Shown here piece after piece: positions 33,790 through 35,301 of a stretch of 64,000 nucleotides of DNA; position 1 is the stretch's first letter, and the number at the start of each line of letters is the position of its first letter. The stretch covers positions 224,001-288,000 of the forward strand of contig CAVXWZ010000002.1 in NCBI GenBank assembly GCA_963765575.1, read 5' to 3'. Source of the DNA: an uncultured cyanobacterium (GTDB lineage: Bacteria; Cyanobacteriota; Cyanobacteriia; PCC-6307; Cyanobiaceae). A model generated the notes under the pieces. It worked only from the letters and a program-made list of their open reading frames with translations, was not told the origin of the DNA and ran no database searches. The translations under genes and the position numbers were made by a program.

Positions 33790-35301
33790 ATGCAGAACAG
33801 CTTTTTCGCCGACTCCCTCGATCAGGACACGGTGAAGGAGCGGATCCTGGCGTTGGAGCAGGGCCGGGTGGGCTTCTACAGCGTTGGCCTCTATCCGGCC
33901 TCGATGGCCTACAACAGCGCCATGCATGGCAGCAGCGACCTGCTGCTGCTGGCGCCGCGGCCGGGGCGCTCCCTGTTCGGCGCCTTCGCCGCCAAGGACC
34001 GCGCCGGCATGGATCAGGCCCACGTGGCCACGGTGGAGGGCATGGCCCACCAGCTGGTGGACGGCCGGCCCCAGCCGCACACGCTGGCGTCGCTGATCGA
34101 GCACTGCGATCTGGTGCTGCTGAGCTCCAACAGCAACCACATCGAGCAGGATCTGCAGGAGGCCTGCGACCTGCGCCGCGAACTGGGCCGGGAGCAGGTG
34201 GTGCTGGCCTGCCTGGCGGGCTCCTTCAGCCACGACCCGCTCAGCAACGACTCCTATGTGCTGTGCGAGCGGCAGCCCAATCTGGCCTTCTTCTCGGGCT
34301 TCCACCGCCACGACGCCCTGCGCGATCCGGTGGACAGCTTCACCGCCAATTTCTGCCATCCCAACGCCATCACCGCCCTGCTGGGGGCGCGGCTGCTGGA
34401 TCGCATCTCCCCCAACATCCAGGTGTCGCCGGGGGTGCACAACGTGGAGGCCCAGTACATCAAGGCCGCCAAGAACATCTCCTCGATCTTTGCCGGGTTC
34501 GGCCACTCCTATCACGCTGAAAACACCGGCATCCTGCCCACCCTGCTCACCCTGCTGCTCGACCAGTGCCTCGACCAGGCCTCCTCGGTGTCGATGCGCC
34601 GGCGCGACCGGCAGCGCCTCTACGGCCGCCAGCCTTTTCCGCTCACCGAACTGGGCTATGGCGTGCAGCGCATCGAGGCGGCCCTCAACCGCGGCGGCGA
34701 CATGGAGAAAGTGCGCGACCACACCTTCACCCAGCTCACCGCCATGGTGGCCGATGTGCGCGGCAGCATGATGCTGCCGATGTATGGCAAACCCACCCGC
34801 AACTTCCAGGCGGGACGGATCCTGGCCGAAGGCATGCGGCAGCTTGGGCGCTGCCCCCGTGATGTGGAGGAATTTGAACACTGGTGCGAGCAGGGGGGCC
34901 TGCACAAGGGCGGCCTGGAAGGTCTGAAGGCGTTGCGCTACTGGCCCCAGATTCTGCGCAACTACGGCATCCAGGTGCATGACGCCTCGATGGTCAACCT
35001 GCTCTACATGGCGATCTTCGGCAAACGCGATACCAAGGCGATTGCCTTCCGGGTGATGACCGAGAGCCGGGAACTCTCCAACTACTGCCAGGAATCGGTC
35101 CGCCCCACCCACAGCCGCCGCTATTCCGAGGCCCTGCAGAACCTCGATCGGCCCGGCGCCCTGGAACTGGTGGCCAACGCTGTGATCGCCGACAACGCCC
35201 GCCGCGCCGTGCCCGATGACACCATCAGCGACGACGTCGACAGCGGCGAGGAGAGCCCGGCCTACCTCAGGGCGATGAATGTGATCGAGAACGTGTGGTG
35301 A
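33790..35301 (+). CDS. Hypothetical protein, probable remote NAD(P)H glycerol-3-phosphate dehydrogenase (GpsA) homolog
   Basis: Colinear GpsA-like motifs (see findings); strong coding bias. Confidence 0.6.

Follow-up and report, generated by a model that had tools for sequence, protein, structure and literature searches.

The window, that is, the whole stretch of 64,000 nucleotides that was analyzed, contains an intact open reading frame (P0001) whose product had been proposed, from the DNA letters alone, to be a highly diverged relative of glycerol-3-phosphate dehydrogenase (GpsA) with insertions and a C-terminal extension. The gene, its neighbours, and the predicted parts of its product are as follows:

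31956..33725, minus strand: sodium:solute symporter (PF00474), divergent neighbour
33790..35301, plus strand: P0001 gene, 503-aa divergent GpsA-fold dehydrogenase (predicted)
33862..34434, plus strand: predicted Rossmann domain, residues about 25-215 (secondary structure, profile and structure alignments)
34441..35109, plus strand: predicted helical substrate-binding domain with insertions, residues about 218-440 (model, structure alignment)
35110..35298, plus strand: C-terminal extension not covered by the GPDH match, with a loop of low confidence and three predicted helices
35267..36403, minus strand: rlmN (TIGR00048 over cut-off), convergent neighbour

The frame at 33790-35301 runs unbroken on the plus strand for 503 aa, and a longer version from a GTG at 33718 is unsupported because the relatives begin at the same methionine. 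GC content by codon position in this frame (0.66/0.43/0.90) is close to that of rpoC2 (0.67/0.44/0.89), part of an rpoB-rpoC1-rpoC2 series read by eye downstream in the window; a long antisense frame opposite P0001 displays the mirror image of this pattern, and the plus strand is thus the correct one. The dN/dS ratio was 0-0.16 in all ten P0001-family pairs compared. Among 8000 scored candidates, 637 matched the P0001 family; the best 120 of these shared 67-97% identity, the named matches among them were labelled hypothetical or uncharacterised, and the best named relatives came from Cyanobium and Synechococcaceae, in keeping with a high-GC picocyanobacterium as the origin of the window. Neither a promoter nor a terminator consensus could be found for the gene. 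RNA contigs from one metatranscriptome study covered parts of a relative's gene, although level and strand cannot be read from contigs.

The symporter and rlmN flank the P0001-family gene in the source genome, G067, and G097, and within the short G099 and G111 loci the symporter alone was seen, with rlmN lying further off in G099. A functional link between P0001 and these neighbours was rejected, as the contig of a relative joins the symporter and rlmN without the gene. On that contig, 90 other letters replace the P0001 gene between the two (window 33717-35325), an empty site that fits either relocation or local loss. Elsewhere in the window, a low-GC island at 12000-24000 (GC 0.47-0.61 compared to about 0.70) holds frames that look, by reading rather than by family scan, like a glycosyltransferase, a sulfotransferase-like protein, and two transposases.

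When P0001 was searched against Pfam, NCBIfam, and PDB sequences, nothing matched (no family at E 1 or less), and P0001-family profiles yielded nothing useful against the same three collections; an OsmC match (E 0.85) was dismissed as noise. Comparison of the P0001-family profile with a profile of 18 GpsA sequences aligned residues 25-427 from end to end (pairwise E 1.7e-4). When the comparison was rerun, the score was 45.3 over 321 columns, 38 block-shuffled profiles scored 32.8 or less, and the reversed profile scored 17.5. The end-to-end alignment claimed in the preliminary description was therefore upheld, with a score above 38 of 38 shuffles, and its eight GpsA-like motifs do occur in the order given, starting at residues 27, 107, 139, 166, 226, 320, 336, and 376. 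When three distant relatives (P0143, P0149, and P0251) were left out of the family profile, the GpsA match fell to E 0.006, and the two alignments, with and without these relatives, differ in register at residues 143-145 and 320-330. On its own, the sequence signal for kinship between P0001 and GpsA is weak, and it is the structural comparison that settles the kinship.

The distant relatives came from a search of 1.84 billion representatives, which returned 137 matches, mostly fragments; P0143, P0149, and P0251 are full-length (24-28% identity). P0143 weakly matches PF01210 (E 0.0094) and P0251 weakly matches NF000945 (E 7.5e-5), both below cut-off, and single-sequence profile comparisons of the two with GpsA were likewise weak (E 0.38 and 0.0056, respectively). 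The structural model of P0251 also matches glycerol-3-phosphate dehydrogenases; it was folded with P0001-family members in the alignment and so is not independent. P0143 and P0149 carry long insertions. P0251 is encoded at L116:8001-9290 in G394, an uncultured alphaproteobacterial genome without gpsA, which is not a clean second case of gpsA replacement because GlpD is present there. No further relatives of P0251 were found elsewhere or in 100 relatives of its genome, nor were more distant P0001 relatives found in metagenome or viral contigs.

An AlphaFold model of P0001 built from 57 sequences (pLDDT 84.7, pTM 0.84) contains both a predicted Rossmann domain and a predicted helical domain of the GPDH type. 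When the model was searched with Foldseek, all listed rows to rank 25 were glycerol-3-phosphate dehydrogenases (E 3e-9 to 4.5e-6), and the first other family to follow was P5C reductase (E 1e-5). In a VIA structural realignment of Foldseek's best 999 chains, Coxiella GpsA came first (Z 28.0, with 310 of 326 residues at 3.0 A). Glycerol-3-phosphate dehydrogenases filled all of the top 16 rows (Z 23.2-28.0), and ketopantoate reductase, which followed as the next family among these chains, reached Z 14.2. Furthermore, by ESM Atlas features, glycerol-3-phosphate dehydrogenases (0.92-0.93) rank directly behind the P0001 family's own clusters. The GpsA fold suggested earlier is thus borne out by the AlphaFold and Foldseek check. 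P0001 has about 170 more residues than GpsA, divided between insertions and a C-terminal tail. Because the GPDH match spans about residues 20-440 and leaves the chain beyond about residue 440 outside, the C-terminal extension is genuine.

Conservation of the active-site positions was counted in 164 P0001-family sequences and 18 GpsA sequences. These positions are:

33880..33897, plus strand: altered dinucleotide loop S31-x-G33-x-x-P36, replacing GxGxxG (profile alignment)
33958..33960, plus strand: Arg57, following the second strand and paired with an invariant GpsA Arg (profile alignment)
34216..34224, plus strand: A/V/S-G-S at residues 143-145, where GpsA has its "KG" lysine, human K120 (alignments)
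34462..34476, plus strand: K225-x-x-K228-N229, with K228/N229 matching human K204/N205 (profile alignments)
34753..34767, plus strand: D322 and S326, likely human D260 and T264 (register partly inferred)
34795..34803, plus strand: T336-R337-N338, the GpsA SRN phosphate clamp, human R269 and N270 (profile alignments)
34918..34923, plus strand: E377-G378, the invariant GpsA EG (profile alignments)

The lysine of KN and the arginine of RN, named at the outset as catalytic and phosphate-binding residues, proved invariant: K228, N229, R337, N338, E377, and G378 are each present in 164 of 164 family members, and both profile alignments pair them with KN, RN, and EG of GpsA, K228/N229 and R337/N338 matching human K204/N205 and R269/N270. 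D322 and S326 are invariant in the same 164 sequences and in P0143, P0149, and P0251, with the spacing of D260 and T264; the pairing of D322 with the GpsA aspartate is seen in the profile alignment without the distant relatives, but not in the one with them. Passages of a study of human GPDH list Q295, R269, N270, N205, T264, K204, D260, and K120, with losses in kcal/mol of 9.1 for R269A, 6.5 for D260G, 5.6 for N270A, 5.3 for K120A, 3.1 for K204A, and 2.5 for Q295A (PMC9119304); by the values in those passages, the human counterparts of the invariant P0001 residues are worth 3.1-9.1 kcal/mol each.

Two parts of the site do differ, as had been noticed. In place of the GxGxxG loop, the family carries a near-invariant SxGxxP (S31 in 164/164, G33 in 163/164, and P36 in 162/164), so that two of the three glycines are changed. 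Residues 141-145 read C-L-(A/V/S)-G-S (L142 in 163/164), and lysine occurs at these positions in 0 of 164 family sequences; the KG lysine of GpsA and of the distant relatives pairs with G144 in the alignment that includes those relatives and with A143 in the one that does not. Conversely, K225 is present in 164/164, while the same position is glycine in 18/18 GpsA sequences and, as read from a primer in a passage of PMC9119304, in the human enzyme, three residues before the KN lysine. The distant relatives P0143, P0149, and P0251 have Cys, Cys, and Gly at this position and keep a KG-type lysine (AKG, AKG, and AKS). K225 may fill the space of K120, because a lysine at either site pairs with a small residue opposite in all three groups, and it is possible, judging from alignments in which three sequences form the outgroup, that K225 replaces the lost K120-type lysine in a swap. 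Arg57 is found in 164/164, with the aligned arginine in 18/18 GpsA sequences. An arginine after the second strand of a Rossmann fold is taken as a sign of NADP(H), and Arg57 thus suggests NADP(H) as the cofactor of P0001; a literature search on NADPH specificity found no paper. Altogether, P0001 is set apart as a GpsA variant because the family models, the glycine loop, and K120 fail, while the fold and most of the residues are GpsA-like.

The preliminary description had raised the question of whether carriers lack a canonical gpsA. This holds for 94 of the 109 carriers found in the order, but the source genome has an ordinary gpsA on contig C8, and the argument that P0001 fills a gap therefore applies to the relatives and not to the source strain. 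In the source genome, some 250 kb separate the P0001 gene from a ggpS-ggt-glucosidase-glpD-glpK cluster, and on the opposite side stpA is about 170 kb distant. This stpA (at G000:C2:86377-87581, L128, which the window does not include) is broken into two frames at a G run; contigs from two runs, otherwise identical to it, carry one additional G at the break, so that an assembly slip or a strain variant is the probable cause.

To survey the distribution, 151 genomes of the order, a sample of kin that are not independent of one another, were searched with P0001 and four families. The P0001 family was found in 109 and gpsA in 56; 94 genomes had the family only, 41 gpsA only, 15 both, and 1 neither. 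Thus 94 of the 95 genomes without gpsA carry the P0001 family. G109, the sole genome lacking both, looks like an assembly gap because its stpA is cut by a 3152-base contig end where the gene would follow. Since the genomes are kin, the pattern may reflect one or a few events. Across the phylum, gpsA is near-universal (245 of 251 genomes) and the P0001 family was found in 8 of 251, a match in G368 (E 7.9e-4, 51 positions) being treated as chance. The 15 genomes with both genes, namely the source genome and 14 others, keep them under purifying selection, and an osmolyte isoenzyme or an enzyme with a different substrate fits this equally well. At G098:C2:653079, a gpsA match has an internal stop in a genome with the P0001 family, and at G138:C1:1979735, ggpS has an internal stop in a genome with gpsA and without the family; both are possibly sequencing errors.

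In 52 of the 151 genomes (genera g4, g5, g6, g7, g9, and g17), gpsA, GlpD, and an over-cut-off GgpS are all missing, two sub-cut-off GgpS matches being seen in g7; 51 of these 52 keep the P0001 family, and stpA is present in 52/52. StpA is left without a known substrate there because no GgpS exceeds the cut-off. Fifty of the 52 genomes measure 1.5-1.9 Mb, and we infer that they are of the Prochlorococcus type, judging from this size, from named homologs, and from the absence of glucosylglycerol genes reported in passages of PMC6753628. In five small genomes tested from this group, PlsY was present in 5/5, PF01210 over cut-off in 0/5, and a GlpK-grade kinase in 0/5, with weak FGGY matches. All cyanobacterial glycerolipids begin with the acylation of glycerol-3-phosphate by PlsX/PlsY, according to a section of PMC5716074.

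Taken together, these data make it likely that P0001 is an NADPH-dependent dihydroxyacetone phosphate (DHAP) reductase whose gene arrived along with those for glucosylglycerol and took the place of gpsA. NADPH would bind the Rossmann domain, Arg337 and Asn338 would clamp the phosphate of DHAP, and Lys228 would polarise its carbonyl; Lys225, beside Asp322, may stand in for the lost K120-type lysine, such that K228 and K225 would together stabilise the C2 oxyanion. The product would be sn-glycerol-3-phosphate, for GgpS and PlsY. The gene would have arrived with the salt-protection genes of glucosylglycerol synthesis, supplying GgpS with glycerol-3-phosphate; most marine lineages would then have lost gpsA, so that PlsY and the synthesis of membrane lipids would today depend on the family as well, and the smallest genomes would have no other candidate source of glycerol-3-phosphate left. 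In the source strain, which keeps gpsA, glpD, and ggpS, P0001 may be a second, osmolyte-linked isoenzyme relocated from the cluster. The earlier suggestion of an unrecognised source of glycerol-3-phosphate thus gains strong comparative support from the relatives, but not from the source strain. A more specific proposal is put forward tentatively: membrane lipids in Prochlorococcus-type genomes may draw all of their glycerol-3-phosphate from this family, an enzyme of the osmolyte pathway that would have displaced gpsA and would work with a rewired active site, the K120-type lysine and the glycine facing it having changed places (Gly144/Lys225 versus Lys/Gly in GpsA).

The surroundings of the gene were read in 21 loci chosen across genera, with stpA identified by PF09506. 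In 17 of the 21, stpA stands head-to-head with the P0001-family gene, with about 2.5 kb between them in two. The gene lies inside a full ggpS-ggt-stpA-glpD-glpK cluster in G002, G013, and G055, unlike in the source genome. Moreover, 108 of the 109 carriers in the order have stpA, and the family follows stpA more tightly than it follows the loss of gpsA; its usual gene company is the glucosylglycerol cluster, not the neighbours in the window. Many loci have a phosphotransferase gene (PF01636), often with an unnamed 190-aa gene, after the family gene (L037-L046, L049, and L053), and in the source genome these two lie on another contig than P0001. An arsenosugar role was set aside, as the radical-SAM neighbour of stpA is missing from the G002, G013, and G055 loci and from the window.

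This linkage to stpA, and the retention of both genes where ggpS is gone and the substrate of StpA is not known, are what one would expect if P0001 were a GpsA-derived reductase for another phosphorylated carbonyl that is paired with StpA, reduction being followed by dephosphorylation to give a different small solute; the lost substrate-side lysine and the insertions in the substrate domain point the same way. We nevertheless regard this as unlikely. Outside the family of these picocyanobacteria (f1), 24 of 25 stpA genomes do without the P0001 family, G251 alone having the gene, so StpA does not need it; the gene lies far from stpA in the source genome, G095, G097, and G099; the phosphate clamp and the KN pair are unchanged; and 51 genomes would be left without an identified source of glycerol-3-phosphate. 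With regard to StpA in the genomes lacking ggpS, a role as phosphatidate phosphatase is speculation; a section of PMC5716074 notes that this enzyme was not identified in P. marinus.

Less probable still is that P0001 is an active glycerol-3-phosphate dehydrogenase but dispensable, the lipid precursor coming from GlpD run in reverse or from a GldA-like enzyme together with an unrecognised kinase. GlpD is present in 59 of the 151 genomes, including all sampled g8 and g12 genomes, and G369 and G375 (2.8-3.1 Mb), which have no intact gpsA and no P0001 family, have GlpD, PlsY, and stpA; GlpD may therefore suffice in some cyanobacteria. A broken gpsA remnant was seen in G369. The small genomes also have a GldA-like dehydrogenase of putative function and FGGY genes. 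Against this, GlpD is missing from the 52 genomes, both of the FGGY proteins that were scanned look like xylulokinase with no glycerol-kinase model listed for either, and the normal direction of the quinone-linked GlpD is the oxidation of glycerol-3-phosphate. GlpD occurs in 43 of the 94 family-only genomes, and this FAD enzyme could cover those 43, but not the 51. That P0001 instead has little or no catalytic activity and, by binding NADP(H) or glycerol-3-phosphate, regulates glucosylglycerol metabolism is very improbable, for while the K120-type lysine and two loop glycines are lost and C-terminal helices added, the other mappable catalytic residues are invariant in 164/164 and the gene persists in streamlined genomes that do not make glucosylglycerol.

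In the literature, PMC3369817 states that EC 1.1.1.94 lacks an annotation in one marine Synechococcus and three strains of Prochlorococcus. Passages of PMC9361551 regard the FAD enzyme as what corresponds to gpsA in marine strains, crediting marine Synechococcus with the FAD enzyme alone; in a table there, the FAD enzyme is scored in every marine column and gpsA in two. No description of the P0001 family was found in the literature searched, which stopped short of paywalled papers and 11 of the 21 supplement files of PMC9361551, and the protein goes unmentioned in the accessible portions of PMC2874817, PMC9948718, and PMC5217662. If the DHAP reductase reading is true, a salt-adaptation gene took over a core function; the family offers a conserved candidate for glycerol-3-phosphate synthesis in very abundant ocean phototrophs, by which an annotation gap becomes testable, and nature would have provided, in the apparent lysine swap, a test of the oxyanion hole with two lysines that has been described for GPDH.

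Compared to bacterial GpsA (EC 1.1.1.94; PF01210 and PF07479; PDB 3k96, 1txg, and 1z82), P0001 shares the predicted two-domain fold, the order of the KN, RN, EG, TF, and SG motifs, and the arginine after the second strand; the identity is 12-16%, and P0001 differs in having SxGxxP for GxGxxG, in the loss of the KG lysine, and in a new invariant lysine three residues before the KN lysine. The eukaryotic NAD-dependent GPD1 (human 6e90 and 1wpq; Dunaliella 6iuy) matches the predicted fold of P0001 (Z 25.9-26.9), and P0001 has counterparts of its K204, N205, R269, and N270, and probably of D260 and T264; however, K120 is absent from P0001, and the cofactor is probably NADPH rather than NAD. Ketopantoate reductase, P5C reductase, and the beta-hydroxyacid dehydrogenases of the 6PGD-like superfamily share a Rossmann and a helical domain with P0001, but at Z of 14.2 or less, half the GPDH score. 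In the cyanobacterial glucosylglycerol system (GgpS, GgpP/StpA, GgtABCD, GlpD, and GlpK), gpsA is co-localised with the glucosylglycerol genes in some strains, according to a figure legend of PMC6753628. The P0001 family is not a described member of this system and is kept where ggpS has been lost; in most loci read, however, its gene is in the cluster or beside stpA, where a supplier of glycerol-3-phosphate would be expected.
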